A stretch of DNA of 63,791 bases, the filler included, from Phoronis australis (taxonomy: Eukaryota > Animalia > Phoronida): assembly GCA_002633005.1 (NCBI GenBank). It is 5 parts of 5 records of this genome, joined end to end, with 100 filler letters (N's around TTAATTAATTAA, not from the genome) between each part and the next. Parts side by side here need not be neighbours in the genome. Positions count along the whole stretch, not along the records: positions 15,390 to 45,921 come from NMRA01000042.1; 4 more parts are not named here. The stretch is one strand, 5' to 3'. The notes under the pieces are model-generated. The model saw nothing but the letters and a program-made list of their open reading frames with translations. It made no database searches and had not been told where the DNA came from. The position numbers were made by a program, and so were the translations under genes. This document shows, piece after piece, positions 15,390 to 43,269 of the stretch. Positions within the stretch are counted from its first letter, which is position 1, and each line of letters starts with the position of its first letter.

Positions 15390-15814
15390 GGAGCCTGCCT
15401 GCGCTGCCTTCGGCAGCTGGGCTGGGGCCCGCCTAAGTGCTACGCCGGAGCCTGCCTGCGCTGCCTTCGGCAGCTGGGCTAAGGCCCGCCTAAGTGCTAC
15501 GCCGGAGTCTGCCTGCGCTGCCTTCGGCAGCTGGGCTGGGGCCCGCCTAAGTGCTACGCCGGAAGCTGCCTGCGCTGCCTTTGGCAGCTGGGCTGGGGCC
15601 TGCCTAAGTGCTACGCCGGAGCCTGCCTGCGCTGCCTTCGGCAGCTGGGCTGGGGCCCGCCTAAGTGCTACGCCGGAGCCTGCCTTCGCTGCCTTCGGCA
15701 GCTGGGCTGGGGCCCGCCTAAGTGCTACGCCGGAGCCTGCCTTCGCTACCTTCGGCAGCTGGGCTGGGGCCCGCCTAAGTGCTACGCCGGAGCCTGCCTG
15801 CGCTGCCTTCGGCA
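15390..15814 (+). repeat. GC-rich 57-bp minisatellite (~7.5 visible units, truncated by gap)
   Basis: Unit GGAGCCTGCCTGCGCTGCCTTCGGCAGCTGGGCTGGGGCCCGCCTAAGTGCTACGCC. Confidence 0.95.
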
Positions 15815-16320
15815 GAAAATTGGATTTTGTGCAATATTGGTTCGAACATAATTGCCTAGTCTGATTACATCAAGCAGACAAGTATCTAATGTGTCTTGAA
15901 TCTTGAGAGCGAACGAATCTAGGTGTATTAACATTTGGTGGACGTCAGCTTTAAGGAACACGTGGGATTTTGCCTTCGGACAGTATCTTAACCATCTAGA
16001 TTTTCTCATTGAGTTAAAGTAAGGTTTCGTTACACAGTAATCACCTATGTTTACAGAACCTTGATATTTCTCATCGTACAGGCGTTCATGATATCTTTTA
16101 GTCTCGTCATGTAATTCTTAATGTGTAGTTATTACCTTGGCAGATTCGAGTGCCTGCATCTATCAATCATATGGTCTTAATCAGGGAATATGACTTGTCA
16201 CGAATTTTGAAATTAATTGGTGTCTCTTGAGTAATTGCGACAAAAGACTTTATAAAGAAACAACAAGAAATCCAGCAATTCGTCACAACTTTGTCGTCGC
16301 TCTTGCTCAGAAACCTAGCC

Positions 16321-21123: not shown

Positions 21124-23297
21124 ATAACTCAGAACAAATGAAACGATTTAGAGGCTTGGGTCGGAAGAACAGTCAGGTTGTTCTTTGTTCATACCATGCC
21201 CATAACGTTTCTTGCCAGGCCCAGTAGTATTGTAGTCACAGAAGTTCCAGTCCATTTATTTTAGCATCTTATAACTCAAACAAGATTAGAACGTGATGAT
21301 GCACCTAATACTTCGCTCCTAAACAAAGTGATGACGTGGCTTTGGAAAAACAAATACACCTGCAAAAATGTTCATTTGACGTTTCTAACTCCAGGACAAA
21401 GTTTAGAGAGGCGTTTTGAAGCCTCTATAAACTATGTAAATTTGAAGTATCTTAAAAGATACTTAAAAAACGACACGTTTATTATAGGCGTGAGGATCTC
21501 AGAAGTTGGCGTAACGCATGTCGGAAAGTGATGTGGTCAGGCTCACCATAAGTTGGTCGACTCTTTTCCTAAAAATATAAAGAAAAGCAGCAATTACCAA
21601 CGTACTAGATAATCAGCTAGGCAACATACGAAACTTGGCAGTACTTAAATGATACTTGTCATTTTAAGAAACTTTTGAATACCTGAATGCACTTTATTTT
21701 CTATGAGGAAAGACTGAAAAGATTCAGTCATGCGATGCAAAGTTCGTGAATCTCTATAAGGCGTTATCAAAGTAGTAGCTTGGCATTGTTTTTTTAAGAA
21801 CGACGTAACAAGATAATTGAATGCGTTTCTTTTCGACTGAAAATACCGCATGGTTACATGTGGAGGTAATATGACCGGATCTAAGTAAGATAATGCGTTA
21901 GCGTTGGCTTGCAAGGAAGTAAGTAAACGTTGTGCAAACGCAGTTATATTCCGTCTCTTACCACAAACACTCCCATTACTTTTAAAAGTCGTGACACTCG
22001 TGTCTGAACGCTGCTTGACCTTAACCTCGTAACTGCTATAATATAACAATAAATTGAACGTACAAAAAGAAAATATCCATGCAGAGACACATATGTTGCG
22101 ACATTATTTCTGGACATTAACAAAACAAAACAAAATTGCCAATTAACCTTTTTACATGACTGAGCGCGTCAAAAGTTTATTTCGCAAGTCTTCTCAATCA
22201 AGTATAAAACCTTTTTTGATGATAGTGTTTACCGACGACCAATCTCTCAACGTACCTTTTTCGCAATAAACTTCAAGTGAAGGACATGTTCATACAATTG
22301 ATGTTCTTTATGCAAAAAGCATTTGACCAAAAAAACTTCTCGAAATTCAGAAATTTTAAATGAAATTATTTCGCCACATTTTATAATATCCAGTTACACT
22401 ATTCTAAAAATATGATTTTGACCGTTTTGTGACAGAAGAAAATTATGAAGAAAATGGAATTTGTGAACCTCCATGTGATTCATTATACAATTACCTTTGA
22501 TGACATATTGCATTTCTTCCAGTGTTTTTATTCAATTTTCTTTAATCTCGCCTCTGACATCGTCGTTTTGGACATCTTTCTTTCACTCACAAAGTATAAA
22601 CCTTTTTTGAAATTCAATTTTACTGGTGTGACCTAAATACATGTATAACGATGTTCACCAGCGATACTTACCACCTTTTAGAAATGTGCAGAACTTGATA
22701 CTTTTGTAAATATCATGAAAACAAAGTGTATGAATGAGTTAAGGGACTTATGGAAATTTTTTATTAAAGTCTGAAGACGTGGATCTACTGTATTGTCGAT
22801 CTATCTAATGTGTGCTCACGTGTACACTTGTGCATGTTACTATTTGAAATAATCATGTAGGCCAGTGGTCTTATTACATGAACTATAATCAGGAGAATGG
22901 ATGGTCAAGCCAATTACGTCACTTCACTGTTATCGACTACAGAACAGTAAATAAAGCTGAAACATACATCAGGGAAAATCAGTTCATCCATGTTTAATAA
23001 TAAAAAACAGAAGACACGCTGACTTCCCCTTTAAAGTGACATCTTATGCAAGGTGGTTTCGAACGCATTTTGCTGTTCTACAGCTCTGGTCAAAACTAAT
23101 AACTTCACGAAGTCTAATCTACCCATCAATAACACTCAAATGCGTTTTTGGTCCTAAAACCAAGTCCATCATGTCAATCACACGAAAACCCGCTTAATTG
23201 TTTTGTTTAGATACCTTGGTCAAAATGCTTTTGGCTTTCCTTATTGGTACGTGACTTAGGCTACGGTTCGCTGGTTTGAAGGCAGCGGTCGACGCTT

Positions 23298-23303
23298 TAT
23301 AAA
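23298..23303 (+). promoter_or_regulatory. TATA box of cystine-knot gene A
   Basis: TATAAA 66 nt upstream of the ATG of the first micro-exon; gene B has the same arrangement. Confidence 0.55.
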
Positions 23304-23363
23304 GCTGTTGATCAGCCGTGTAAATCAATGTGGTTGGGCTTTTCAGAAGGCAACGAAAACCTC

Positions 23364-26300
23364 ATGATGAAGATATCATTGGTATGTTCATACCGTCGTT
23401 GGGCACCACATTTCAAGTTATCATTATTCAGATTTTATTGAATTCGAGCCGGTTATTTTTCGACAGTTTTGTACTAACGCTCTTTACATTTACAAATTTA
23501 ATTCAGAAAAAAGACAATGTTTGATGATTGTATTTTTAACATACATGTACGTTTAGCTAGATTTAAAAGCAAAATGTTCAGAATTTCAAACACAAGTCAT
23601 TTGGATCCTCACATTTTCAGGAGCACGAAAAGATTTTCCGCAAACAGCTCACAGTAAGGTGTTGTTTTGCGGGTTTATCTTCAAGGGCAAATGTACGCAA
23701 AATAATGCGCACGAGCCACATGTGGTATACATGTATGAAATAAGATACCCACGAAAACTAGTGGCAGAATACATAGGACTATTCAGTCTCGTGGCTGTGA
23801 CCATCAGTATGACTGTTACGTGAGTATACGTAGGAAAATGCAACTGACGACGAAAGATGGCGTGTCAAGCTGCGCTCCTGATGTCCCTAAATTCGTGGAA
23901 ACAGCCTATATGTAGGTATTTTAAATTATCAAGCAACTTCGCTAATGTAATGCATCTCGACAAGCGCACTAAGCATGTGCATATACATGTACAGGTTTCC
24001 GCCTTTCTTCCAAAAACAATGGTTCGCTTATACACCAGAATCTCTTTGCATATTATTAGACCAACCCTGATGAAAACATTAAAACAGGGTCGTCTGTAAT
24101 GAAGTGATATTAATCACGGTGTACCGGCCTCGTACTGACAGGCCAGATACATCATTGTAAATGGAGAAATATCCAGTGTCCATTTATATCTTGCAAAAAC
24201 CCATATAGTTGTTGTACAGTACGTGGGATTTCTAAAAGGGCGGAAAGACTTTCACCAAAGGGAGAGAAAATATTGGTGGCGAGACAGAGGGAGGGCTGGG
24301 GAAAGGGGAGGCAGCTGCCCAAACAATGAGAAAGGGATACCACGGTGACGACCAGAGGGTCCTCTCACGCCACAGCTGTCGTAAAACTCTTTCATGTACT
24401 ATACCAAATGTATTTGCGAGAACACGACGTTGCATCTACTATGACATAAATTGGACACCAGCCTTTGTTTCCTAATGTTGACAACTCAGGGCGCTAAGCG
24501 GGAAATCAATGTTTTATTATATTTATAAAATCATTGAAACATGACAACTGAAAATACTGCTTTTGGTCTATCTACACTGTTCGCAATTTTGATATAATCA
24601 ACTATATAATCCACACAAATAATTGTGACCAAAACGATTCTCTAAGTTTTTCACGGACTGACTTCCCATGTCTCCGTTTTTCCTGCAGGTCTACGCGAGA
24701 TCACTCAACTATATGTTTTCAGTGATTGCAGCCAATATAGCTCAGTCACTTGCTACTGCATTGTCTGCTCGGTGAACGTAATGAAGTGACTTTAAGTACA
24801 TGCAGATACATTTTTTATCACTTGTTTGCTGGTGTGCCACAAAGTGAATTCTGTGCGGGCCCGAGGCGGGCTGTGTGTCCCATATGATCACTGTAGACCG
24901 AGGCGGGCTGTGTGTTTCCCTGTGGTCACTGTGGTCCGAGGTGGGCTGTGTGTCCCATATGCTCAACGTGGTCCAAGGTGGCTGTGCGTCCCATATGGTC
25001 ATTGTGGTCCCAGGTGGGCTGTGTGTCCCATCTGGTCAATGTGGTCCGAGGGGGGAGTGCTGTGTGTCCCATGTGGTCATTGTAGTCCGAGGTGGGATGT
25101 GTGTCCCATATGGTCAATTCGTAGTTAATAATTGTTACAGACAAAAACTGGCTCTTTGTATCAGGTTAAATTAAGGAAATGTCAAGAACAGTAGCTGTCA
25201 TATTGAGAATGTCTGTTCCAAAACCATACTGCATATGGTGACTTTTTTCAGTTCTTCATTTTGGCTATCACCACCTTCGCACGTGGTCATGACCAAATTG
25301 CGAACGTCGAAAGCGTGCAAGAGGTCAATAGGGATGAAGGGCCGTTAGAACGTGAGCTGTCTGAGGAAATAGCGGAGAACACGGATGCTGAAGAAATGGA
25401 AGCGAGAGCAGCCGTCGACAGCAACGAGGAAGAGGAAGAACAAGTAGAGGACGCTATTTCTGATGTGGAGACACGGGCAAATAGTAAGATTTTACTTACA
25501 TTGTCTTCTGTAATGTTCATAAAAGATTTCGTGACATCGGAGCGGTGAGGAATTGGAATTCATACCGATGGTGAGGCGGCTATGAGATAAGCTGAATGAA
25601 GAGCCAGTGTCTACCCCAGTGGGGCGCCAACAACGCCATTCTCGTTTGGCACTTATTTATTAAAGGGATAGCAAAACCGGTTCTGGCCTGTTAACAGATA
25701 TTAATGAAAACGACATTTCCATCCAGTTTTGTGAAACAAAATAATGACTGTAACCCTCGGCAACCGTCAAAATTATGAAGCAAAAATTGAGGTCACGATA
25801 CTGTTCTGCTTGACCTGGCTTTAGGCTACTTACACAAGAACTGTAGCTAAAGACCACCCACCAAGAATCATAATGTCCGATTTGTGACACAGAGCATGAG
25901 CGCAACCGGGGGGGGGGAGAGCTTGGGGGGCTGGAACGAACCCCCCCCCCCATTTGGCGAAGTGGGCAAAAAGATTAGCTCCAGAGAAACAAAATTTCTG
26001 AAAAAGTATAAAACAAGACAACAGTCCACTAAAAAGACAATGTACAATTCAAAGGTCTGAACTGACCCCCCCCCCCTTTTAGTAAAAGGCCCACATTCAC
26101 AAAAAATTCGAGGCCCCACGTTGTTTAGGCTGGGTGCGTGCATGCAGAGAGTATGAATTTGTAGTTGAATCCTCTTTTTATCACTCAAGTTGGACGCCAC
26201 TGATGCATTCGCAGGTGAAAGTACGACAGATTGCTTGAAATCACAAATACAGTGTTTAACACAATAAAGTAAAACGACGAGCGTCGGTACCAAAATTTAT

Positions 26301-29300
26301 TAAAATATATTTACTAATATATATATATTAAAATATATTTCAATACCGAAGCTCGTTGTTTTACTTTATACTATTTCACTTTTCGTAGCCGTCAGTAACC
26401 GCACGAAATTCCAACACTTATTTCATTTATTTAGGGTTTAGTACCTTTTTAAGAGCGGGATCAGGCTAATATTCCCCAGAGTACTGTAGAATTTGATAAA
26501 ATTGTATGCGTCGTGCTTGAGTCCTCACATTGAATGTGTGTCGTGCCCAAGTACGTAGAATGTCTTATCATTGTATGTGTCGTGCTTGGCTAGACTGAAA
26601 TCGTTAGTATTACAATGTCCATGTGTAGTGAACGAGTTCCCGTTTGAATTTCTTAGCAGTGTATGAGCCATGCTTTCGAACGTTAAGAAAAACTGGTGCA
26701 TTAAGTTGTATAAAAACAACCTCTGAACTAGCGTACGCAGTTTATTTCTGTATTCTTGCAAGAAGGGTCAAAAGATAATACTACGTTCTTGGGATGAGAT
26801 TTATTCGAACTTGAAAGCTCTTCAAATTCTAAATTATGTTTGCGCAATTTCTTATAACAACAATTTTCAAGTACAAAAACACAGATTATTGTTTACAGAA
26901 GGATATATCCACACTGTTGCAAATAATTATGATGATGTTATTGTCGAACAGGAAGGTGGAAAGAACTGTTCAGACCTCATGGATTTAACTGTGGATGTTG
27001 TCCTCGACGCACAAAAGTGACACATGCGTACAGTCCGCGTTTACCTGGCAAGTTCTGTCCAATGGTTAAGCCGAAATCTCTCTATATGACCGACTGCTAG
27101 TAAGTTCGATTCCATAGCAGCATACATGACGGCGTCCTGTCGTTCAGCAACTTTTCCAGACGTGAGGGGTTCTGAACGTGCGATAACATCTGGCTCCGCT
27201 GCCCAGCATAGTCTTTTGTCCCGTATGATAACAAGCACGCCAATTATCTCCCAGGCTTCGAAGGGTTACTGAAACCTGGCAGAATGGATTGTCTTAACTT
27301 CTGTTGTAGTTGGGCGATTTTGGCGATTCAAAAACTAAACATGATCAGCATTTGACAAAGAGTTCGAAAATTCTACTGGTTTATGTTGAAATGTTTTATA
27401 ACTTAACTTTCATTTCCAACAGTAAAGCCCAGTCAGGCTAGATACGATCTGATCGGAAATTAGAGCAACTATCGAACAAAAGAGAGCCGGTCCTCCAACC
27501 ATCAATGCCAGTATAGAGTCAATCAGTCGTGTAAGATACTGGCTACAGGGGTAAACTTCCCAAGTTGTTGTTGGGCCACAGAATCGAACAACTTGGGAGC
27601 AACAGGAAAACGCCGTAATGATTTATACTATTGTCTCAAATAGTGTTACTGGTACTGTATATCGTTTCCCGGTATGAGTTCTTTTAAGAACATAAAAGTT
27701 CTGACAATGCAGTGTACACGTGGGCACTTACAATTACACGTGTCTTCGTTGATTAACAGATTTCTGTAGCATTTTACTTACGAGAGGCTGAAAGCTATTG
27801 TTAACAAGCCAATTAATTTGCTTTACATCAGCCTGTCAAGAGCGCAAGAGGCGTGGTCAGCCATTCACAGGACAATCTACCTGACGCTAAGTTTAAAGCG
27901 GATATGGACATGGCACCACACCATGTCAAAAACTTTATACCACTTACCGTTATCAAATTAGAAATAAACAGCTAGTTCCTCATGCGGAACGGAAGAGATG
28001 TCTTGGTCCAAGAAGAACAGACAGTGCCTTAAGGCTCGACACTAGTCTCAAAGGGTGGCATGTTTCTGCGCACTGAGTAAGGTTTCCGAAGAAACAACGA
28101 TCTAATAGTTGTTCCCAAGCAGCAACCTAGGTTCTTCAGCAATACGCCCCCTATCGGGATAATGTGAGTGGTATAAACCGACTAGTTTTTGGCATAAGAC
28201 GATCATTTTAAATTGCTTCCATCTTCATTATTTGAAATGACCTACTTTGATTGGTTTCACGGCGGAAAAGCGCGATTTTGGGGTCTTTGCTGGATGGGTT
28301 GGACTTCGCGAAGTCATCAGAAACTTTTACCAGAGCTATAAAACAGCAAAAGTCATTGGGCTTTTGTGATTGTTATACAAAGTGCCGTTGTCTGCCACAC
28401 ATTTGCTGAAACCAAGAGCGGTGACTTCCAGTTAATGCGTACTCTGCCATGAACCGAGTTTCGTTTAGTTCCATCAGCAGCGCCGTTGATCGACTGCAAC
28501 CGCGTTTTTGCAAGTTCAAGTCTGCGCTGAGATTGACCTCACAAAATCACTTTTCTTGCCGATGTTGTAACTTTAATGTTGTGGAAGTACGTATACTATG
28601 ACCTCCACGTATATTCAGTCAGAAATGAGGGTTGAGTTTCGAAGACACAAGAATCTCGCTAAGGAAGCTATTGTAATCACGTGCTTCGCTAATTGCATTT
28701 CATGACAATATCTCGCGAAGTCTTGTAAGTTCTTGCCTTTCTCGCAAGACACTAACCGGTTTAGGGAGCGCACGCCGCTGTTACCCGGTCACGTGCGGTG
28801 TTGGTCGACGAAACGTCTAGCGCTTTAAAGAGTTTTCAAAGAAATTTGGAATGTTCTCCACAGTTGTTATGAAGCATGTCTGGATTGTAAAATAATCATC
28901 CTTTGTTATGTTCAGACGCCTTCAAAAGAATTCGCAATCCCAAATTAAAGAAATTTGCCATGCAAAAGACCAGTTCTAAAAAGCAACCTCTTGTCTGTTT
29001 CCGCATTCGCTAATTGAAACCATCGACGTCTACTCTTGTTTCCAGATGCCTCCAGTATTTCAAGTAAAACTTAGGTCAGTACATGTAGATGTGTTGAAAA
29101 TGACTAAATGCATGTATGGATGGCTTACTTTGGATGTTGTCTCTCAAATCAACGACATAAACTTTGCGACAAAAGCACGTTTGACAAAATGGCAAGGGGA
29201 AAAAGAGATGTGTGTGGAACATACTGGCGACTTCTTTCATAACCCAGTTTTTTCTGGATTAGCACCCTGTTTGTTTTGATTCATTTAGGCCTCGTAACTG

Positions 29301-29860
29301 CCTCAGGTAACGCTTTGATTTGCAAAATTTGGGCGAAGTTGTGTTACAAGGGGTAAGTACATTCTCCGGCGTGTCTGGAAATACATATTTTCTGATAGTC
29401 GGGTTACCTCAGTCCCAATGTGCCAACAGGTATCGCCATCTGGCGCTCGGTCACTCAACCAACCCAATTCCAATCACGTTGTTTCTTCCACTAAAGTTAC
29501 TAGCACATCAAGCCAACACACTTAGCAATAAATCAAGAAAGTCGTCACACCACTTTCAATTCCAGCAAGGAACTAGTTAATACTAATTTTATAACTGTAA
29601 GTGGTCTAAATTAAATTGAAAAGTGTTGGTGCATAAACCATTGAACAACAGTTACCATTCTAAGTTTCTTTTCCAGCAAACCACCCGGTCACTGCGTGAA
29701 AGTTAGCACCGTCAAAGGTAGACTTGTTAGTCGCGTAGTTGGAGTGTGCAAACATCTTTACAGTCGCACCATAACCATTACAGTGCGCTGTCGTAACAAC
29801 AGGTTTTACAGGGTGCGGTTGAGGCACTACGTCCGATGTGCGTGTATTCATTACCTCTGA
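23364..29860 (+). CDS. Secreted cystine-knot-like prepro-protein, paralogue A (193 aa, 4 exons)
   Basis: Exons 23364-23381, 25252-25483, 26952-27099, 29677-29860; all introns GT-AG, phases 0/1/2, open frame. Protein: MMKISLFFILAITTFARG-HDQ...(acidic)...VETRANRR-WKELFRPHGFNCGCCPRRTKVTHAYSPRLPGKFCPMVKPKSLYMTDCYKPPGHCVKVSTVKGRLVSRVVGVCKHLYSRTITITVRCRNNRFYRVRLRHYVRCACIHYL*. AATAAA at 29951. Paralogue B independently supports the exon structure. Confidence 0.9.
24854..25115 (+). repeat. ~37-bp minisatellite (~7 units) in intron 1 of gene A
   Basis: Approximate unit GTGGTCCGAGGTGGGCTGTGTGTCCCATATGGTCACT. Confidence 0.9.
25895..26144. mobile_element. MITE with CATG(A/C)GCGCA-type TIRs and possible 5-bp TSD CAGAG (intron 2 of gene A)
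   Basis: CATGAGCGCAACC...GGGTGCGTGCATG flanked by CAGAG on both sides; related copy at 37278-37535. Confidence 0.65.
26264..26369. repeat. Inverted repeat with AT-rich loop
   Basis: ATAAAGTAAAACGACGAGCGTCGGTA ... TACCGAAGCTCGTTGTTTTACTTTAT. Confidence 0.75.
27127..27620 (+). repeat. ~500-bp dispersed repeat (inverted copy at 55887-56425)
   Basis: Shared blocks such as AATCAGTCGTGTAAGATA.TGGCTACAGGGGTAAACTTCCCAAG and GTTCTGAACGTG.GATAACATCT. Confidence 0.8.
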
Positions 29861-31159
29861 GTAGCCAAGACAGAAGACGGAATGACTGGGTGAAAATTTT
29901 CGTGCTCTTGCAGCCATGTCCCTGTTGAATACAGCTGTGATTGCTCTTGCAATAAAGCAAAATTACTTAAGCATTACAAGAGTGTCGTTACTCAGGAAAT
30001 GTAGAATCGCAAACTGTCATCGCTCTCTTCCTCAGTGCTTTTCTTGCTCAATCAGGTTTCTACAGTGGCGGGGTACAGTGACTGGGAACGGAAATGAGAA
30101 ATTATTTTTTCCTTACTCAAGCGCCCGACTAGTCCGTCGAGCGCCCAAGTCATAACTCGGGCACTCAAATTATTTCTCATGCTCTTTCCCAGCCACCGTA
30201 GGTTTCCCTATACATTTTTCATGAACAGAGAAGTAAACGCAAATTCGGCAGGTTTTGAAGGCGGGCTGTTTTCCATACAGATGGCCAGATGATCAAGAAA
30301 CCTTCTTTCATATCAATATTAGTAAATGCAAGGAAACACTCACCGTCCTACAAATTACTACAGCTGAAGTTAGGAAACTTCTTGAGGGCATCGATAGCCA
30401 CAAATCAAACAGTATTGAATTCGTAACAAAGTATATCATAGATATATAGGCAAAGAATTTCCTGTTCCTCTCACAACAATGTATTTTGTTTTGACCAACT
30501 GAAAGGTAGTGATAATGGTATCAATTTGGGAGAAGGGCCCACTTGTTTTTAGCAACAAAGAGTATGATCTCCTAATGAAATCATTCATACAATTACTGTT
30601 TGGAAAAATAACAATGAAAAATATATTTTCTTTGATTTATGCTATGTCTTTGGCAGTAAAAGTATATATTTTCTAAATGTAGAAACCCTGGTTGATTTGA
30701 TTATTGACTTTATACCAATATCCTATTAAATGGGTCACGCGACCATGAAATTTTTGTGAAGTTTAACAAAAAAGGTATATTCATAAGAAAACAACGGTAC
30801 CAATAACATGACCAATTTCATTTGATAGAATTGTTTTGGGAAAAATCTCAAAAACAGTCTTTTAAATGATCTCTTCGTCTTCGTTTCATGCAGATTTCGA
30901 TTTTTTCATAAAAAATCATAAAGTTCCTATTTTGGTAACCTCTTCACAAAAGTGGAACTTTTTGAAAATAATTCCAGCGTTTTGTCAAACAAAGTTCAAA
31001 GCATAATATCAGAAGTTTGATACGAATCCAATCAGCCGTTTCCGAGATATGGCATCATGTTTTGGAGTTAGCCAATTTGGACATTTTTCTAGGGTTCTAT
31101 GCAATCTTAAAGATGCATATTTTCATTAAATTGTGAATTTGCAAATGAAGTACTAATTT

Positions 31160-33190
31160 TCAAACAACCCCGTGTCCTCCAGTGTGCTGGAAACCACCCG
31201 AGAATCAGTTACCATTACAATCTCGCAGAAGTCAAGTTTTGCGAGACTATTTGTATGTAAATGAGTATGATAATAATTCATTATGGAGGACGAAGACCCG
31301 ATGTCGGCCAAGAGAACAAAGAAGGTCGGTATCAAACAATTTGTCCCACACAAAATGTCCAAGCCAATCCGCAGCAAGTCATGGATCACTAGGGACATAC
31401 AGAAACTCATGACCAAGCTCGACAAGATATTCTCTGATATGAAGCGGAACAGCGGAGACCCCAAACGTCGATACAAGCAAGTAAAAGCTCATATACAAAG
31501 ACGTACAAAACGGTATTACTGGAAACTTATTGAAGATGTAAATCACTGCACCAACAACAAACAGTTCTGTTCGAACATATAAAACCAAAAGCAACGCAAT
31601 GATCGAACTGGAATATTTGCCATGAAAATTGGAGGCAAAATTATGTAAAACAAAAAAGGCGGGGATGACTGCTTAATTAACCAATTCCAGTCAGTCTTCT
31701 TGGAAAGAATACCACCCACTTGACTTGAAAACAATTAGTCGGAATACAGCACCGTGGCAAACCTTTTCGACTATGCTCGACATTACCATAAATACTACTT
31801 TTGTCATTAACCTACTTGATCATCTGGACAAGTCCCCGGGTCCAGACGTCATTAATCCTAGTGTTCTCAAAGAACCTGCTCCTGTCATCGCTCCTGCTCA
31901 AAGCAAGGTTTTTCAAAAATTATTTGACAGCGGCACGGCGCCTTTAGACTGGAAAACTGGCAATGTATCTCCAATCTTCAAGGAGGGTCAACAATTTTAC
32001 CCAGCTAGCTACAAAGCCATCTCTGTAACATAGATAGCTAGTAAGCTAATGGAACACGTCTTATTCAGCAACATCGTGGACCAAGCGTCATCTAACAACA
32101 TCCTGTATAACCTCCATCATGGCTTCATAGCAAAACGATCATGCGAGACCCAATTCGTACAATTTGCACATGATCTCGTAAGCATTTTATGCAAACAGAT
32201 TTACTGATCATGGACTTCTCGAAAGCTTTTGGCAAAGTAAACCATCATAAATTATTGTCCAAGCTATTGACTTACGGTGACAGAGGGAAACTATTCCTGT
32301 GAATTTAGTCTTTCTTGTTAGGTTGTTCACAGAAAGTGGACCTCGATAGAGATAAATCTAACACCATTGGTGTATCATCTGAAGTCCCTCAAGGATCAGT
32401 CATCGGACACTGTCTGTTTTTGTTTTATATGAAATGACATTGCTGAAAACCTGACATCCAAATCTCACCTCTTTGCAGATGACACCATAACCTATCTGAC
32501 AATTAAGAGCAATTCTGATTCAGCGAAGCTCCAACAAGACCTCGACAGGCTTACCTTGGAGACTAGATCGCTGATGAAACTCCATCCTGATAAGTGCCAG
32601 GTACTACCTGTTTACAGGGGTAAAACATTTGTCATTTCTCATTATCGACTTCACAGTCAGACACTCGAGATCGTTGACTCAGCTAAGTACCTCGGACTTA
32701 CTTACACATCTGACTTATCATGAATCTCACATGTAGATTCCATCACTACAAAAGTCAGCAACAAACTGGGCCTTCCACGTAGGAACGTATGCAGTTGGGC
32801 AATTCTTGTGTGAAAGAAAATGCCTTAAAATCTCGTGTAAGCCCCATCTTAGAGTACTGCTCTAGCATCTGGGACCTACATGTATACACTGAACGAAATG
32901 TCAAAAAATGACATGGTCTAGCGCAGAGCATCCAGATGTGTAACTAATATATATAGACAAAGCTCCGGTGTGACGGACATGCTTCATCAGCTCAACTGGA
33001 GGTCTCTGGAAAATATAAGCGCTAGCATGAAACTCACAAAATTACGATGTGGTTGCAAGCAACGATGCTGTCTTCTTAACCCCATTATCGCCTACTCGCT
33101 CTTCTAGGCAAAGCCCTCCACTCTTATCCCGCATTCCATATAGTAGACAAATTTTTCATTTACATATATATAGCATCTTCCCAACCACCA
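31160..33190 (+). mobile_element. Degenerate CR1/L2-group LINE reverse transcriptase fragment
   Basis: Motifs KSPGPD, DWKTGNVSPIFK, HGFIAKRSCETQ, MDFSKAF, VPQGSV, LFADDT, LQQDLDRL and KYLGLT, with many stops and frameshifts. Confidence 0.9.
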
Positions 33191-33235
33191 TTAGATTGTA
33201 ATTCCAACCTTGACACTGCGATGGCTTGGTGTAGT

Positions 33236-33315
33236 AAGGAGAAGAAGGAGAGAAAGAAGAAGACGAAGAAGGATGAGGAAGAAGAGGAACAGAGTGAGAA
33301 GGAGATGAAGAAGAA
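33236..33315 (+). repeat. Purine-rich (GAA/GAG) low-complexity tract
   Basis: aaggagaagaaggagagaaagaagaagacgaagaaggatgaggaagaagagg... Confidence 0.8.
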
Positions 33316-36300
33316 TCCCTGGGAAACCCCACAGCATTTTCGTTACCCTAGTGAAATAAGGCACAGTTGTTATTATTCGTTTTTTCAATATCAAATAACA
33401 ATTCTTAATATTTGGAATTACTAGGTTTCTTGTATGTTCACACTTGTTTTTAAATGTATCAGTTGTCGAGATTTCTTTAAAACAGCAATTTATTTACAAA
33501 CTGTTTCTTTTCCTTATTATACTTGCACACGCAGTTCTACAGGAAGTCACTGGGTGGTGCTTGCTACAAATTTAAATATTCAAGGTTTTGACGAGACATT
33601 GCATCTTTCAGGTGCTCAATTACATAAAAATATATCTGAAGAGGCTATTTTCAACACAAGACATATTGCAGAATGACTGCCTTGGAGAACAACCTTACTT
33701 TCGGAATCCCAATCTGATTCTAAGCCAACTCGTGTAAATCAACAATACTAATTTGGGAATAACAGAAATGCATTATCTGTTAATGTAAGAGATACGCAAT
33801 TGCTCGCAATGATCAAAACTAGCCAGAAAGAAATATTCTACCACAAAACGACAACTTAACCCCAATCTGATCTTAGCGAGCGTTCTCGGTGATCAGTTCA
33901 TACTGAACGTCAAAACGAAAGAAATTCCGCACAGATTTACACACCAAGATCAAGATGGCATTATCATCAACATCTAAAATGTTTACAAAAATGTAGTCAA
34001 GATTTTTAAAATGCTGATGTTAATATGATCATGATGTTGTAGTGAAAATTTAATGTTTAAATTCTTCCGTTTTGGCATTCGGTTCTCACTGATGTTCAGG
34101 TATCATCGATTCTAATTTTAGGTCAGACATAAGTTTGGCATCACCAAGAAGGCTGTTAAATATGCACGAGTGTTACTATACAGTAAATGTCGTATTCTGA
34201 GCAATATTACAAATGGTCTGGTGGAGATGAGGAATTCTCGATCGAGTATTTCCAGGCATACCAAAAATTTGAACCAAGAGTTTTGTAAAAGAACAGAGTA
34301 AAGAAACTGGGCCACTATCGAGCAATTGACGCGATTCCCAAGTCCCATTTTGAGGACATTCCTTCTTGGACTTGCTTTGATGGACTTGTGAAGTTGCGCC
34401 ACTGTGTGACGGTACAAGTTTTAAACGTGTTTAAGCAGCCGCGAAATTTTTGTTTTACACATTCATTCCCAGCATGCCAAAAAATTCTACAGCCTAAGAC
34501 ATTCTGATAATAAAAACAAGCAAACCGACCAGTGTGCACCACTCACTAAATTGTCAATTAGTTTTCGACAACGTGAGGAAAATTTAACCATCTATATCTA
34601 AATATATAAAACTGCCTATTCATTCCAAAATATATTTCTCTAAGGTATAGTACTGTTTCGAAACATTCGCAAAACCATAAATAGATAGTCAGGTACCCTC
34701 TATCAAAATTAAACTTGTTAATAAATATATCTCATTGATTACAAAATGGCTAATGGCAGCGGAATAAATTGTTTTTAAAGCTCTCAATGCTGAAGCAAAC
34801 AATTCACCACTAAATAGTTTGCCTACATTTGAAGTGAATTCAAGTTTTAAACAACATTAAAGAAAAAATATATAGGTTGAATGCACAAACAGTAAACTGT
34901 GATCTAAATTCCATTATAACTGAGTGGCACGAGACGTAACTCTGGGAATTACACCCTGTACTGTATTTTACTTGCATTTTAGGTGACCGGCGCATCCTTT
35001 TGCGAGGTGAAAGTGGCTTCTTTAATGGTTTAGCACTGAACAAATCTCATCGTTTGTTCTTAACTATACAGTCGTCCTCCATTTTCTACTTTGTCTCAAC
35101 AAGAGTGACGTCATTTTCCCAACAATTAAGGGGGCACACTACAGCTAGAGCAGGGTTTTGGCTGACGACACACATCCAAGTGGAGACTAGTCCTTATCTC
35201 ACGTCCTTATCAAGAGCCTGAACAAAACAAAAGATTTTTTGGCGTTCCCAACTCAACAGCACTACTCATGGTAACTGAAACTTAATTCTGCTACAGATTT
35301 TTAATCGGCTATTTCACATCAGGAAAAAATACCGGCACACAAAAATAGGACCAAAAATACCACATTTGACCGTTTTCTCCCCAAATTTACTACTTCTCTG
35401 CAAGTGCTAGAAAAAATCTAACAACAGATTCAGCATTTTCGTTCTCTCTAGTTTCTAAAAATATGGTCATAGTACCCCCCTTACCAGCTAATTTTTTCTC
35501 AATTTGGATCTGTCTAACAGCCATCTGAAATCGCACCCGTTTTCTTAGTAACCAGGCGACAGGGGTTGAAAGTAAGCGACAGCCACCACTTTGCAAGAAA
35601 AGTGGGTCACGGCTAAAAAACTTGGCTTTCTCATTCAAGCAAATCCCTTTCCTAGCAATTTTTTAAACAAATTCCTCAACCTCCCGCCAAACTTGACACA
35701 CACCCTGTATTTAAATTTAGAAACCCTGTTCACTGCCACCTTTAAGTAAACAGCTTCCTTTGTTCGCCCCCTGTCGGCTTGTTTGATGAAAGCAAGTGAC
35801 ATCAGCCTCCGGGATTTTCAAAAGAGCCCCACCATCATTGCGAATTTTATGGAAAAGAAGGACAGAACGACAAACTTGAATAAAAAACAACGTAGGCCCA
35901 GATGACGTCTAACTTTTGTCGGTAATGTAAATCCTGAGGTTTGAAAATTTTTGGAATAGGGTTGCTGTTTAGAGAAAGCTGGAAAATGCAGCTCCAGGTA
36001 CTTTCGATATTTTTGCTAAAATTAACCAATTCTGTAATTCATTTACGCTAAAACCCTTACATCTTCATAAGCAAATTTAAGTGTCAGCACGTAACTACCG
36101 CGCTATTTGTTTATTTCAAGGCCGGCGGTTATTGAACCAAGTTTTGAACACACGCACGACCTATTTTGAACAATGAATGATACTAATAGGTTTTTTTAAA
36201 ATTCTATTTCGCAATTTGTTTTTCTCTTTAAACCGGGCATATTTACAGAAGCAATACCAGTGGCTATCACTGACTGGTATTTTTTCACTGTCGTTGTTTT

Positions 36301-37277
36301 CAAACGAATTCATTTCCTCATAACCAGCCTGACGTTTTTAAAGATATCACGTAGGCTTACATATAACACATGAATACGCAGTTTTATTATTTTATTTGTC
36401 GGTTTTCAGAGATTTTTGGACACTTGCTTTACCAAGTTTTGGTAAAGTTTATTACCATTTAGTGGGCATAGAACCGTTTGACAGTTTTCTATTGAAAGGC
36501 CACTGATCGTTTCAATGAGCGGCAGTCCGTCTCATCTACGCAGTTAACAACTCACTGTCGACAACTATTGAATTATTGCAGTGGCCCAATAAAGCAAAAG
36601 TTGGCGATTTAAAATGAACAAAATTACCCTACTGTACACGTATGCTATTGTTGAATGGTGTGGATAGCATAAACCATTCAAATAAACACAGGTTCCGAGA
36701 GTGATGAATGGCCCTATATTTAATTTTTTATATAAGTTCAGATTCTTTGCCTGGCATGTTGCTTGCTTTACAGCCGTTGTCTGCTCTCCTGATTTACACG
36801 GTCAAGGGTTTGTGATTTCTGAAGCCTACAGTCGATGAGATCACGTTACGATATTTGACGCCTGCACTACGCGTGTCATCTTGTCTACTGAACTGCACGT
36901 GCACAAAATCTTGCTTTTTTGAACTCGGATAGCAACAACTGAAGGTGAAGTACCACCGGGAACAAATGACAGCGAAGTTTCCACCCATTAAAAATCTCGT
37001 TCTTGAAACAGAAATACACATTAAATAGTGTCGCAAATTTTTTAATTGAATTTAATTAAATTAGCATCAGTCAAGAAGTCACAACGACTTGGTGAGCCAA
37101 GTGTGTTATGTTCTACCACTTGTCAAGATTTAGCCTCTTGAACAATTTTCTGTCAGGTGACACCATTCAAAAGTCCACGAAAATATGATTTATCATTATT
37201 ATTATATCACATTGTATAATATTTAGCAGAAAGATTACAAAATAAGATTGAAAGCTGTCAGTCGTCAGTACAAGTGC

Positions 37278-37535
37278 CATGCGCGCACCCAGGGAGCATC
37301 GGGGGGCTCGAACGAGCCCCCATTTGGCGAATTGGAAATAAAAGGTCCTCCTCAGAGAAAGAAAAAGTCCGAGAAAACGAGAAAAACCCCATAAGAAATC
37401 GGCGCGAATAGACAATTCATAAGTTTGAACCTTGTACCCCGTTTTCGTTTTTTAGTACCCGTTTTCTTTTTTTATCAAAAGGTCCACATAGCGACAAATT
37501 CGAGCCCACCTGAATTTTAGGCTGCTGCGCGCATG
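37278..37535. mobile_element. MITE related to 25895-26144, ~150 bp upstream of the gene B TATA box
   Basis: CATGCGCGCACCC...GCTGCGCGCATG; internal CCCCCATTTGGCGAA and AAAAGG.CCACAT...AAATTCGAG shared with the other copy. Confidence 0.65.
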
Positions 37536-37687
37536 AATACGCTTTCGCCAACTTATTTACTTACTCTATTTAAACTGCAAACCTGTTTTGAAAGGAATTT
37601 TTAATAGCAAACAGGTTTTAGGCTAATTTATTGCTTGTGTTGCAAGAGGAAGTAAAAGATGATAAATGGACGCATTGTTTGGACCTC

Positions 37688-37695
37688 TATAAAAA
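37688..37695 (+). promoter_or_regulatory. TATA box of cystine-knot gene B
   Basis: TATAAAAA 55 nt upstream of the ATG at 37743. Confidence 0.55.
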
Positions 37696-37742
37696 GAAGC
37701 GCGCTTGGAGTTACTGTTGCATCTTCGTGGATTCAAGAAGAA

Positions 37743-40700
37743 ATGAAGACACCGATGGTAAATATGCTTTACTCTCATGCCCCAATTAACTTTTGTCTAG
37801 TTAAGTCGCTTTGTAGGTTTTATAAAATTGTCTTGTTCACATTTGTACCATCTCTCCCCAACGTTAGCACCCTATCCATGGAGATGCCATGCTTTTTCAT
37901 GCTCTTAAACATCCTTGAGGCAACAGTAGCTCCATGGACAAAAATAAAGAATTGTAATAACCTACAATTTCCTGTGATACGGTTGAAGCTCAAAGAAACA
38001 AGTTCACCAAACGCAGCAGCATGATTATTTCCAGCACAACGGAGTTAGCCTAAATGTCAGCTATGAGAAAAAACGGTTTATTGTTGGCCTTTTATTTGGA
38101 CTAAACGTGAGTGAAAATAGGAAAAAAAACACTAATTCCAAAGAAAAGTAGGAGAAAATAGGAGTCTCTCAAAAAATAGGAAAATGAGGAAAAATAGGAA
38201 ACTTAACACCCTGCGAAAATTGCGGTGTAGGCCTATCGATTTCGAAAAACACGAGACCTGGAGTTTAATATCTGTAATCTAAACTTTACATGGCAATCTT
38301 TGAGTCAATCACAAATTCACAAATTTGTACTTGAATCATGCGGTGTGATTGGTTAAATGTGAATTCTGTGTCTGAACCAAGTCTGAGTTCGAAAATAAAA
38401 CCCTGCATCTAGATTATTATTTTTACATCAAATATTTCATCTGAATAAATGTCATGTCCACAGTCTAACTTGCGTATTTCAGAAACATTTTATTGTACCC
38501 AACGGAATTCAAAACTAAAACCCTTTGTGATTTAAATTCTTTAAATTCTTTCCATTGACAGAAACAGTTTGAGTCGATCTTACATACATGTAGCTATGTC
38601 CCAGTGAAAAATATCAAACTTATCATAGATCATTAAAACTGTGCATTGAAAAGCGATCAACAAGAAAAATCGAAATAACAAAAAATGGGTGACGATGGCA
38701 GCTCACAGTTTTGTTACCCCATTTCCATAATGGTTACGTAAACCATAAAAAGACATGACTGATTTTTAGTCCTGGCTCATTTTTAAAAAAGCACATCAGT
38801 TTCAGCCAATGTTTTTGTGAAACCTGCTCAAAGGAAGGTGCAAGGTTTGAAACGACATCGTCTGCCAAGAAATAAACAAACTCAGCATCATTTTTGCTCG
38901 TCTAAACTAAGGTGGATTTTTGTTGTTTTTTTTTTGAATCGTGAGCAACTAAAAATACCACTCCTCCGACTTGATTTTCAAAAAACACAAACCACAACTA
39001 AAAACCGTATGCTTTTTGGCTAATACCATCAGCTGAGCTAAACACAGAAAACACCTGACCACATAGTATCCAAACATTCGTTTTGTATTTTTAAAAACTT
39101 TAATATGTTTATGTCGCCATGACCAGCATTCATTCAAAAATAGCTCTAGGCTTAGATCTGATCTCTTGTCATAATAAAACTGGTATCAAATACTTCCTTA
39201 CTAAGATGTTTGAGAAGTTAAGCCTGGGTTTTGAATCCAAGTCCGGCGCACAAAATGAACCACAATATCAAGTCGAACCCTGTTCTTCTTAACGGGAGGA
39301 AGAAACAGGTTCACACCAACTTTTAACGGTAGACCCATGTGGTCTAAATTTAAAATTATTTAGTGACGGGAGGTCGGTTCATAGCAGCTTCAAAGTACGC
39401 AGTGAACATTTTTTTTAGATTCTGTTGGTCTTGACAGTCACAGCTGTCGCGGCTGTTCATGTCCAAGGAGACACTGTGAATGCCCAGAGTGTCCATACTT
39501 TTGGAGATGATGCGACAATGACGGCACGTCAGCTAGAAGACGCTATAGACAGCTACAACGAGGAAAGGAAGGCAGACGAAATTAAAGAGCAAGAGGACGT
39601 TTCCGAATTGCATATGCATAGCAAAGCTAAACAACGTACGTTATCTAACTATTATGTTCACTACACGCTTTTGCCTTGTGTATTAAGCCCCAGCAATATA
39701 TATATGATCGATCTGCTGAAATTGTGTCCTCCACAGGTCCTCTAGATTGGCTGACCTTACACGATATCAGTGACGTCAGAACCAAGTTACTACCAAAAGG
39801 GACGAATTATACATATAGATAAATTTATTGCCATATTACCAGAATGAAGCAAGACGCTATATGATGGTTGGCGCACTACTAAAAACCGGCAAACCATTCG
39901 ATAAGCGCAGTTTATTGAATATGTGCGGTTAAAATATAAGCAACTGTACTTGCTATGCAAAATTTGCGGTTCGTGTGCAATTTTCGGTCAACATTTTTGT
40001 AGAGTACAACAAGACACATACACTGTAGGGTTATTTACCGTGCACGGCTCGGGCATGCCCGTGCACAAAAATTTCTCCCACGCACGCTATTCGAATCTCG
40101 CTACGAATGCCTCCCCTGTTGAACTTACTTTACTCATCGTTCATGTCTACTGTCTTCGTATGTCGTGATCGCGAGTATTAACAAAGAATCGACAATTTTC
40201 GCAACTACATTTGGTAAAATATTAAACATTTACAGTATATGCAGTGAAAGAAAGGCCATTTCTATTTGATTTCAGGATATATAAATAACTTATTGAAAAG
40301 AAAATGAAACACCAACCGTGAAAGGTTAGCACGAAAATACCGCAACAGTTTTTACGACAAGCTTGTCCCTTAGCGGGAAGGAGTCAGGAATAACGTCCAA
40401 GAGCAGGGTTGGCAGTGCTTGAGCGAAGAAATGTGTATACAAGACGCAGAAAAGTGGACCTGTAGGGGGTTATGTGTCCGCGGGAAGGGAATAGAGGGCA
40501 CAAGAAAGGAGTTTGGGAGCGGGTAGTCCAGAACTGCGCGTGGACAGCGTGCATTAAGTCAGGTGCCTTAATTAAGTAAACACAGTCGAATTTGATTGTA
40601 AGAACATGACCAAAGTTGAATATAGAGGGATGTCCTGCCCTCTCCCAGCTTCAATCAAAGGTGAGAGAATGCCACGAGCGAGACGTTTTTGACGGTGATG

Positions 40701-42084
40701 CGAACGTACTCCTTCGAAAACAGTGGTTGGCAAAACTTGCTTCCTGCTTAGTTTACCAATGTTTGGGCTTCCTTCGAAAACAGTGGTTGGCAAAACTTGC
40801 TTCCTGCCTAGTTTACCAATGTTTGGGATATAAACAAACAAATTCAGTTCTAATTCGGATTGAGGTCCATTCCACTCGCGTGTACGCCGCGAAATTCCAA
40901 TTAAAATTTCAACAGACCTAACTGGCAAAGCCATAATTACTAAGTCTCTGTACTGTGTATTTCAGCGAGCTGGAAGGAACTCTTCAGACCAAAAGACTAC
41001 AATTGCGGATGCTGCCCTTTGACCCTGAGTGTTACACACGCGAGTCACTCCAGCCTCCCAGGTGGAAGGTGTCCCATCATTGTTCCACAACCTTTGAACA
41101 TGACCGGATGTTCTTAGTAAGTGTCACAACACCCTTTCCCAGCGCTACGAGCAGTAACAACGTCTAAATACTACGAATCTGGTTTCTCGTTGTTTTAAAA
41201 GCCTGAGGCAATACCAGACATTGCGAGGGGTTACGTACGGAGATTGTTAATGCCTTTGAGAATTGTTTCCTTAATTAAAGCTTTTTTCGCCTGGCCTGTT
41301 TAGCTGGCTGAAAAGGAAACTCTTAAACGGACATTTTACTCTCATTAACTAAGTCTCATAATATTGACTACCGTGACATGATTCCATTTCACTGTTACCT
41401 ATAAGATCATCGATACCATCAGCGACTCAAGTACACGCTTCAGACTATATTGAGATTTTCAAACCCAAAAATGCGTGGGTCAGCATAACTGTCGCACTTT
41501 GAGGATTGCGACAGTTTGTGCAAGTGCGTCATTTTGGTGGTCTAGCACACCTTTTTATGGTTCCTCGTACGCATGGCAAGAATAACGAATTGATGAAATG
41601 TTTACATAATTCGCACTCTGTAGATTTATCATGCATGAATTTCGCAAAATTTATGAATGGAAAAGGGACCAGTGAGAGGACAGTGAAAGCATAAACATAT
41701 AGTGCAAGCCATATCTACACTTTGGTTCTGCGCTATTTTGTATCTACTTAGTTGGAATAGTCTCCTCAAATAACAAATTTATGAAATGAATAGAATTTAC
41801 TGAGTATTCAACAGTATGTGTATAAATGTAAAACTATTGCTTCCAGGTCGTATTGCTGTGTGTTATTAAGCACCAAGCACCATAATCTCCCCTGTTTGGT
41901 GTTTTTCAGTCACCCAGACTATTGCGTCAAAGTTGACTCCAACGGCAAGACTTCGGAAGTGGTTGGAGTTTGTAGACATCTATATGACCGGGTTATAACA
42001 GTGATAGTCCGATGTGAAGACAAGAAGTTCTACTTCGTGAACTTGAGAAATTACGTTCGATGTGCTTGTATTCATTTCAACTAG
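37743..42084 (+). CDS. Secreted cystine-knot-like prepro-protein, paralogue B (185 aa, 4 exons)
   Basis: Exons 37743-37757, 39419-39635, 40966-41116, 41910-42084; GT-AG introns with phases 0/1/2 as in gene A. Protein: MKTPMILLVLTVTAVAAVHVQG-DTV...(acidic)...HSKAKQPS-WKELFRPKDYNCGCCPLTLSVTHASHSSLPGGRCPIIVPQPLNMTGCSYHPDYCVKVDSNGKTSEVVGVCRHLYDRVITVIVRCEDKKFYFVNLRNYVRCACIHFN*. AATAAA at 42235. Confidence 0.9.
40711..40827 (+). repeat. 60-bp tandem duplication in intron 2 of gene B
   Basis: CCTTCGAAAACAGTGGTTGGCAAAACTTGCTTCCTGC(T/C)TAGTTTACCAATGTTTGGG x2. Confidence 0.9.
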
Positions 42085-42390
42085 CGGTCAGTATGACAAC
42101 AACTCAGATAGAAATTGACATTTATTTGCGTAACTACAAAGTTTAGGTTTCATTTGTGTAGGACCTGTCTGTACACTTAGCCAAATATGAACGAAACGTA
42201 GAACTTTACTCAGCAGATATGCATATTTCCTGAAAATAAAAATTCCTAAAAATTAGATTTTTGACTTGATATAAACTATTTAGGTAACTTGACCTTGTGT
42301 TTTATAAATATTTTACTTTAAGCTCTTTTGGCATGTCGTTTCACACTGAACACAGAATTGTTTACGCTTGATATTTTACGCAGAATACAT

Positions 42391-43269
42391 ATAGATTATT
42401 ACATGGCGAAGTCGTTATCCCCCGTTATCTAGAGCCCGAGTGGATTTTGGAGAATTATCGCCCGAGGGGCGTAAGCCCCGAGGGTGATAATTCTACAAAA
42501 TCCACGAGGGCTCTAGATAAGGGGGATAACGGCTGAGAACATGTAATAATCTATTTATACCACATACTAAACGAGAAACATTGCAATGAATCGATTTACC
42601 TTTTCTGACTCTCCACGGCTTTGCAACTACTTTCTTTGTCAGAGGACCGGGGTCGGAGGTCGTGACCTTTTAAGAAAAGCCCGGCTATATATATTTTTGT
42701 CAAATAATGCTTTTACTCAAAACCAATTGAAAACTTAAATATTATAGAAATAAATTGAATTTATAAATTAAGGTTTACCAACTATTATAGCTCAAAACAC
42801 GTTTTTTTCACGCTAAGCTTCGACCGGGAAATTATCGTCTGCTAAAGTAGGTTACCACTGGTAACTGAATATAATTCTCAAGTCAAGGATCCTGACGACA
42901 CGATACCCGCATTCAAACTAGAGATCGGTGATTTACAAGTAAGAGGACATGAGAGAAAAATTTCACCGAATTCAGATATCATTTTTATGGAAATTATGTG
43001 TCTTATTTTTCGTAGCGTATAAGTACAGTACAATGCGGTTTGTTGAACGTGAGATTATTGCGCGTGCTCATTTAAGTATTCTATTTTCACACTTGATGAC
43101 GTCAGTCGCTGCGTGGTGTAGTGGTTAAAGTCGGAGGCCAGCAACATTAGGGTCCCGGGTTCGACCCCGTCCTCGGTTTCCCGCCAAATCGTTATCTCAC
43201 TAGTGAGATAACTTTATGGGTTATTACACGGTTGTATCTGCCATTTGACGCTAATATTGTGGTATAAAT
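42391..43269. mobile_element. Non-autonomous element with a long terminal hairpin and short subterminal inverted repeats (Crypton-like architecture)
   Basis: A ~164-bp palindrome at 42391-42554 centred on GGGGCGTAAGCCCC; ATTTATACCACA (42553) is inverted as TGTGGTATAAAT (43258-43269). The family call rests on architecture only. Confidence 0.45.
43107..43178 (+). pseudogene. tRNA-derived sequence (Pol III A/B boxes, broken cloverleaf)
   Basis: A box TGGTGTAGTGG at 43114 and B box GGTTCGACCCC at 43158; the anticodon stem does not pair. Confidence 0.55.

Follow-up and report, generated by a model that had tools for sequence, protein, structure and literature searches.

A tandem pair of expressed Phoronis australis genes predicted to encode secreted cystine-knot ligand-like precursors with a mosaic cysteine pattern

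To which family of signalling proteins, if any, do two adjacent genes of the phoronid Phoronis australis belong? The genes lie head to tail at positions 23,364 to 42,084 of the window, the whole stretch of 63,791 nucleotides that was analysed (five parts of assembly GCA_002633005.1 joined end to end), within the part taken from NMRA01000042.1. The original prediction, made from the DNA alone, described them as a pair of four-exon genes for secreted ten-cysteine proteins and as a candidate new family of ligands or effectors. Our analysis leans towards a reading in which they are lineage-restricted tandem paralogues encoding secreted, cystine-knot growth-factor-like ligands that would act as covalent homodimers and combine a mosaic of cysteine features.

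Both genes are on the plus strand, and their exons are supported by sequence and RNA reads. Gene 1 starts with a short exon 1 (23339-23381; coding 23364-23381, with the ATG at 23364 and the start of the signal peptide), followed by exon 2 (25252-25483), which holds the remaining signal peptide and an acidic pro-region. Exon 3 (26952-27099) contains the end of an RxxR/RR site, the WKELFRP arm, C97, C99, C100 and finger 1 with C119 and C132. Exon 4 (29677-29972; coding 29677-29860) contains C139, the heel, C157, finger 2 with C171, and C187-x-C189; the stop codon is at 29858-29860, an AATAAA at 29951, and read 3' ends fall at 29957-29972. In gene 2, exon 1 (37737-37757; coding 37743-37757, ATG at 37743) is followed by exon 2 (39419-39635; signal peptide and acidic pro-region), exon 3 (40966-41116; the WKELFRP arm, C91, C93, C94, C113, C126 and an N-glycosylation sequon at N122, with no dibasic site) and the coding part of exon 4 (41910-42084; C133, C149, C163, C179-x-C181 and the stop). 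When the exons are joined by coordinate, they give intact frames of 193 residues for gene 1 and 185 for gene 2. All introns are GT-AG, and their phases, 0/1/2, are the same in both genes. The four-exon models and their motifs were thus correctly predicted.

RNA data under one species label were mapped on positions 23150-42800, as raw reads for three runs (X1-X3, counts resting on about 18-19% of each run) and as contigs for a fourth (X4). All six proposed splice junctions have RNA reads across them, and the strand of these reads is the one that a stranded library should give. Junctions 1, 2 and 3 of gene 1 are crossed by 317/55/2, 332/137/0 and 280/94/0 reads in X1/X2/X3, those of gene 2 by 9/27/0, 11/43/0 and 21/20/0, and a single X4 contig crosses both junctions 2 and 3 of gene 2. 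The 5' ends of gene 1 reads cluster at 23339 (85 molecules in X1), downstream of a TATA box-like site at 23298-23303. A similar site precedes gene 2 at 37688-37693, where 10 read ends fall at 37737 in X2; the real 5' end of gene 2 may lie further upstream.

The mature domains of the two products, residues 86-193 of gene 1 and 80-185 of gene 2, are identical at 61 of 108 positions, all ten cysteines included, and align locally with a score of 336, whereas the best of 1000 shuffles scores 53. Identity is highest in the N-terminal arm (12/15) and finger 2 (20/32), followed by the heel (10/18), finger 1 (15/32) and the CysII-III loop (2/7). At codon positions 1, 2 and 3, identity is 73, 76 and 41 of 106; the proportion of differing silent sites (pS) is 0.76, which is saturated, and that of replacement sites (pN) is 0.30. 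No similarity was detected between the pro-regions (score 33, with a shuffle mean of 32 and 412 of 1000 shuffles reaching 33). Between the introns, the best blastn match has an E-value of 0.38, introns 2 and 3 give no match, and the only matches are 12-15 bases long. Because the mature domains are alike while silent sites are saturated and pro-regions and introns are at chance level, the pair represents an old tandem duplication with purifying selection restricted to the mature domain. The earlier estimate of about 55-60% identity, with dissimilar introns and purifying selection, therefore stands. Duplication by misassembly is ruled out by the saturated silent sites and unlike introns. Pseudogenes are likewise ruled out: both genes are intact, spliced and under selection. 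No third copy was found by tblastn within the window (best other match E 0.37).

Both N-termini carry a hydrophobic stretch, with 9-residue Kyte-Doolittle peaks of 3.1 and 2.8, and small residues at -3/-1. Signal peptides were judged by hand from these two properties, and both proteins are likely secreted; the signal peptide would be removed near residue 18-22. Between it and the cysteine domain, both precursors are acidic (23 D/E in 65 residues in gene 1, 14 in 59 in gene 2). The mature domain of gene 1, immediately preceded by RxxR and RR upstream of WKELFRP, has an isoelectric point (pI) of 10.3, with 23 K/R against 2 D/E; that of gene 2 has a pI of 8.7, with 13 K/R, 8 D/E and the one sequon. 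The charge at the tip of finger 2 is opposite in the two products. Hence, of the precursor layout that the genes were thought to share, the likely signal peptides and the acidity of the pro-regions hold, but the pro-regions are not detectably similar and the basic cleavage site is confined to gene 1. In the mechanism we propose, the acidic pro-region may mask the basic mature domain; in gene 1 a furin-type convertase would remove it at RxxR/RR, and gene 2 would either keep its pro-region or be cut extracellularly. We favour a ligand precursor because the signal peptide, pro-region, RxxR site and mature domain of about 107 residues match the plan described for neurotrophins and for Spz2 and Spz5 (PMC4812194, PMC9427763).

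The ten cysteines follow the spacing 1-0-18-12-6-17(15)-13-15-1, with 17 in gene 1 and 15 in gene 2, just as originally described. Counted from knot cysteine I (C100 in gene 1), gene 1 has the intervals 18-12-6-17-13-15-1, and gene 2 has 18-12-6-15-13-15-1. Six cysteines in each product, ending in a C-x-C and invariant between the paralogues, match the cystine-knot arrangement as a pattern only (C100/132/139/157/187/189 and C94/126/133/149/179/181), and the original prediction had chosen the same set. Judging from this spacing, the fold is probably a cystine knot. Its predicted ring has 11 residues (CysII-x6-CysIII), and neither gene has a CxGxC. A further pair, C119/C171 in gene 1 and C113/C163 in gene 2, is a candidate for a clasp between the fingers. 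A CxCC motif directly precedes knot cysteine I, and Cys IV stands alone, without neighbouring cysteines. In finger 2, hydrophobic residues alternate in the manner of a beta-hairpin.

Comparison with Norrin may provide clues to the roles of these cysteines. The reported disulfides of Norrin are C39-C96, C55-C110, C65-C126 and C69-C128, with inter-chain bonds C93-C95, C95-C93 and C131-C131 (PMC3828517), from which the intervals 15-9-3-26-13-15-1 can be computed. The last three, 13-15-1 (CysIV-x13-C-x15-C-x-C; C96, C110, C126 and C128 in Norrin), are identical in both phoronid genes. There are other likenesses: the eight-cysteine frame of Norrin and the CTCK proteins with a clasp from finger 1 to finger 2 (Norrin C55-C110), a short non-helical heel, a CxCC motif usable for inter-chain bonds and a basic finger 2. 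Such a clasp is also reported for gremlin, cerberus, DAN, GPA2 and GPB5 (PMC3224965). However, finger 1 is 18/12 here against 15/9 in Norrin, with three residues more both before and after its cysteine, the heel has 15-17 residues against 26, and the CxCC lies before Cys I whereas that of Norrin (C93, C95) lies before Cys IV. The knot is favoured because 13-15-1 is shared with Norrin and because finger 1 is longer symmetrically, as a lengthened hairpin would be.

In such a knot, C100-C157 would pass through the 11-residue ring of C132-C187 and C139-C189, and C119-C171 would clasp the fingers, as C55-C110 does in Norrin. By analogy, we infer for C97-x-C99 the inter-chain role of Norrin C93-x-C95, since it stands just before Cys I as the Norrin motif stands just before Cys IV, the disulfide partner. 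It would then form reciprocal inter-chain bonds, but next to Cys I where Norrin has them next to Cys IV, and the dimer is probably covalent. Alternatively, C97 may bond with C100 within the chain, leaving C99 as Cys I. The conserved N-terminal arm and finger 2 may carry the dimer or receptor surface. Norrin binds glycosaminoglycan via R107/R109/R115 (PMC4497409); analogously, finger 2 of gene 1, which is rich in arginine, may bind cell-surface glycosaminoglycans, and this would keep the product local.

Other cystine-knot families agree with the pair in some features and depart from it in others. In contrast to the CKH/CTCK group, to which DAN, Norrin, gremlin, bursicon, GPA2/GPB5 and the CTCK domains of VWF and mucins belong, the genes have a predicted ring of 11 without CxGxC and encode a long, acidic pro-region, ending in gene 1 at a convertase site, and they show no detectable sequence match. 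Membership in the TGF-beta, glycoprotein hormone (GPH) or DAN families was rejected, there being no CxGxC. Spaetzle shares the order of signal peptide, pro-domain and C-terminal cysteine domain; its pro-domain is cleaved to release a C-terminal domain of about 106 residues, by furin-like proteases (Spz2/Spz5) or extracellular ones (Spz1) (PMC9427763), whereas here cleavage is predicted from a convertase site in gene 1 only. In insect Spaetzle there are seven cysteines, of which the seventh forms the dimer bond (PMC8637286), as against ten here, with a candidate finger clasp and no dimer cysteine beside Cys V, and no Pfam Spaetzle match was obtained with single-exon queries. Neurotrophins, too, are made as pre-pro-proteins with a basic mature domain and a basic convertase site (RSKR in the NT of Platynereis, PMC4812194), which is present here in gene 1. 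However, NGF retains only six knot cysteines (PMC4079206), and single-exon queries gave no relevant PDB chain at E≤10, whereas invertebrate neurotrophins are more than 40% identical to human NT3 (PMC4812194).

The remaining comparisons concern loops and single cysteines. Spaetzle and horseshoe crab coagulogen have a six-residue CysII-CysIII loop and a CysIV-CysV distance similar to the x29 found here. PTTH/trunk, noggin and IL-17 also have a CysII-CysIII loop without CxGxC, and an N-terminal C-x-C together with a dimer cysteine is found in PTTH. These three groups have a short CysIII-CysIV interval or no I-IV bond, while here the interval measures 15-17 and neither Cys I nor Cys IV is missing; PTTH/trunk and noggin moreover carry a family motif after Cys I. 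In IL-17, knot cysteines I and IV are usually replaced by serine, and again both are present here. As far as their sequences tell, the two genes encode cystine-knot ligand-like precursors, and yet for every named family that was tested they fall short of a defining feature.

This bears on the original placement of the pair in the neurotrophin/Spaetzle/IL-17/PTTH branch. The six-residue CysII-CysIII loop, Spaetzle-like in length, and the cleavable pro-domain do point there, but the terminal C-x-C is not diagnostic, being found also in Norrin (C126-x-C128, PMC3828517). The placement is not established: from Cys IV onward the spacing is that of Norrin, the clasp pair is a feature of DAN, Norrin, GPA2 and GPB5 (PMC3224965), and NGF has six cysteines (PMC4079206).

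Homologue searches used single exons of 48-60 residues, so that distant or poorly sampled relatives could escape. A word-indexed search with gene 1 exon 4 returned four candidates, none at E≤1, and similar searches with gene 2 exon 3 and with the exon-3 alignment found no relatives. A two-sequence HMMER profile of exon 4 had no match at E≤0.001 among 1,835,955,588 representatives. Against six exons, Pfam gave three weak, unrelated matches, and sequence searches of PDB at E≤10 gave 1, 2, 0 and 0 rows, all chance. In viral contigs, 0 of 20 pattern matches passed. The one passing match of 48 in metagenomes (locus L001, 999-1043) was rejected as a 15-residue chance match in a repetitive coiled-coil open reading frame of 56% GC. 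With such queries, the expectation that the proteins match no recognised family is borne out in the representatives, Pfam and PDB alike. The spliced proteins themselves are evidently absent from the searched libraries, and the blank therefore argues only weakly for lineage restriction, which would still be the best reading. No publication on such a family was found in the literature, which could not be queried by sequence.

The pair is differentially expressed between samples. Per million records, gene 1 has 22-26 junction reads in X1, 5-12 in X2 and 0-0.2 in X3, and gene 2 has 0.7-1.7, 1.8-3.8 and 0. The ratio of gene 1 to gene 2 is thus 19 in X1 and 3.7 in X2, and X3 has nearly no expression of either. 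X4 contains a spliced gene 2 contig at a depth of 5173 and lists no spliced gene 1 contig, although contigs show presence and not absence. A crude estimate for gene 1, assuming a mean mRNA length of 1.5-2.5 kb, is 150-750 transcripts per million (TPM).

The four-exon model of gene 1 was correct but overlooked two further forms. Junction reads reveal a cassette exon (27423-27614, plus strand), with an inclusion of about 9% in X1 and 18% in X2, that stops translation after residue 138, so that five cysteines are lost. It is a poison exon supplied by a dispersed repeat in intron 3 (27127-27628), of which a second copy, 77% identical, lies on the opposite strand at 55879-56422. In addition, 114 loose-end X1 reads at the exon-2 acceptor have a consensus matching 17126-17147 (plus strand), where a GT donor follows. 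This is probably an alternative first exon, 6.2 kb upstream of the main start, known from loose read ends only and with its 5' end undefined; it has no in-frame ATG and therefore could not provide the signal peptide. The reads also differ from the window at 27022 (silent, T107) and 29777 (I167V) of gene 1, in nearly all X1/X2 reads, and the X4 contig of gene 2 differs by P78Q at 40966; these are probably alleles.

Several observations weigh against secreted, knotted ligands. First, PMC3224965 names rings of 8, 9 and 10 residues, the 8-rings having a conserved glycine, and a predicted ring of 11 falls outside these classes. Second, structure prediction, which covered single exons, gives little help. 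The gene 1 exon-4 model has a low predicted local distance difference test (pLDDT) value of 55.8, with strands at 18-26, 31-38 and 43-49 and a hairpin turn just after C171, where finger 2 would have one, and the exon-3 model (40.5) is meaningless; both are too poor to use. Fold searches with the exon-4 half-model (Foldseek, none at E≤0.001; VIA, best Z 4.0, no cystine knot among 50 rows) are uninformative either way. Third, a result in favour of the knot held for one gene only: in the Atlas the top three matches of gene 1 exon 4 were Cys_knot, CTCK and DAN clusters (0.87, 0.82 and 0.82, with Pfam shares of 18-46%; the top match has 181 of 256 features in common), which is a lead only. Gene 2 exon 4 did not repeat it, retrieving only unrelated prokaryotic and phage clusters (0.78-0.84), and Atlas recognition was below 2300 for both queries. 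Fourth, no cystine-knot Pfam family was found on the four mature-domain exons at E≤10, these being half-domain queries. Fifth, inspection of gene 2 reveals no basic pair before WKELFRP and hence no convertase site. Finally, the estimated level of gene 1 is high for a paracrine factor.

Part of these observations would suit a different function for the same knotted fold, namely that of a secreted effector made in large amounts, as an antimicrobial or as a component of mucus, adhesive or clot, whose acidic pro-piece would neutralise a cationic protein until release. This is rather unlikely, although the very basic mature domain and hundreds of TPM of gene 1 and the depth of the gene 2 contig in X4 are consistent with it, as is the lack of detected relatives, a frequent finding with effectors that turn over fast. 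The clotting protein coagulogen has a cystine knot, too. In mucins and VWF, cystine knots act as dimer modules (PMC3828517). Against an effector, gene 2 is far less basic but has the same conserved surface, the window holds only two copies, selection is strongly purifying with no rapid diversification seen, and hormones also can be very abundant in their source tissue.

An unlikely account, overlapping with our preferred one in fold but differing in ancestry and receptor, is that of a divergent Spaetzle/neurotrophin-type cytokine which gained the finger clasp independently and would signal via Toll, Trk or p75 after cleavage. The spacings CysII-x6-CysIII and CysIV-x29-CysV, close to those of Spaetzle, speak for it. 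The cleavage of Spaetzle pro-domains by furin-like (Spz2/Spz5) or extracellular (Spz1) proteases (PMC9427763) and the strong divergence of Spaetzle sequences (PMC8296651) agree with it. The ten cysteines, compared with seven in insect Spz and six in NGF, the lack of an extra cysteine beside Cys V and the Norrin spacing of finger 2 do not, nor, weakly given half-domain queries, does the lack of a Spaetzle or NGF Pfam match.

It is doubtful that the domain has no cystine knot at all and pairs its cysteines otherwise, for example with the terminal C-x-C motifs joined in a nested ladder. There is a C-x-C at both domain ends, no structure prediction supports a knot, and the Atlas lead failed for gene 2; yet the 13-15-1 match to Norrin, the beta-hairpin pattern and the placing of the terminal C-x-C some 30 residues beyond a cysteine fit one. 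An obligate heterodimer of the two products, like bursicon or GPA2/GPB5, is very improbable: the tandem arrangement, common cysteine frame, oppositely charged finger-2 tips and expression of both genes in X1 and X2 would suit it, but gene 1 exceeds gene 2 by 19:1 and 3.7:1 in junction reads, and X4, where contigs again tell of presence and not of absence, lists gene 2 without a spliced gene 1.

The window as a whole has 40% GC and a CpG observed/expected ratio of 0.82 and holds many transposon remains, as would suit an invertebrate animal. At 7654-13025, minus-strand matches to YqaJ (E 5e-11) and SWIM mark transposon-like remains, in which some 1.6 kb (7654-9271) repeat 10597-12283 in inverted orientation at 92% identity. 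Decayed LINE-like (long interspersed nuclear element) reverse-transcriptase fragments (RVT_1, E 0.008) lie between the genes at about 31100-33000, and remains of a pogo/Tc5-type transposase (DDE_1, E 6e-14; HTH_Tnp_Tc5) at 62762-63728. Minisatellites, including arrays of 57-bp and 54-bp units, are found at 15390-15815, 24858-25118, 48112-48539, 49511-49804 and 51825-52076, one of them inside intron 1 of gene 1. Short dispersed elements at about 25880-26040, 37290-37390 and 42385-42560 attract reads of either strand, with numerous loose ends, in every run; read joints between them were rejected as repeat artefacts.

Ring size and extra cysteines are the criteria by which cystine-knot ligands are classified, and the gene pair, with its Norrin-type fingers, predicted 11-residue ring and relocated CxCC, departs from this scheme. 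Going beyond the ligand reading that we favour, it is conceivable, if improbable, that the two genes are founding members of an unnamed cystine-knot class, with the clasp of Norrin and DAN, a Spaetzle-sized 11-residue ring and a CxCC dimer motif on Cys I. If true, this would be a new way of building a covalent dimer and a bridge between the hormone/BMP-antagonist and neurotrophin/Spaetzle branches. It would also provide an orphan receptor with two paralogous ligands, one of them activated in the course of secretion and the other extracellularly, and a case in which a repeat-derived poison exon tunes gene 1. In any event, this is a genuine and conserved gene pair with strong expression in some of the samples, which makes it an orphan candidate ligand and a natural case of variation in ring and dimer chemistry.

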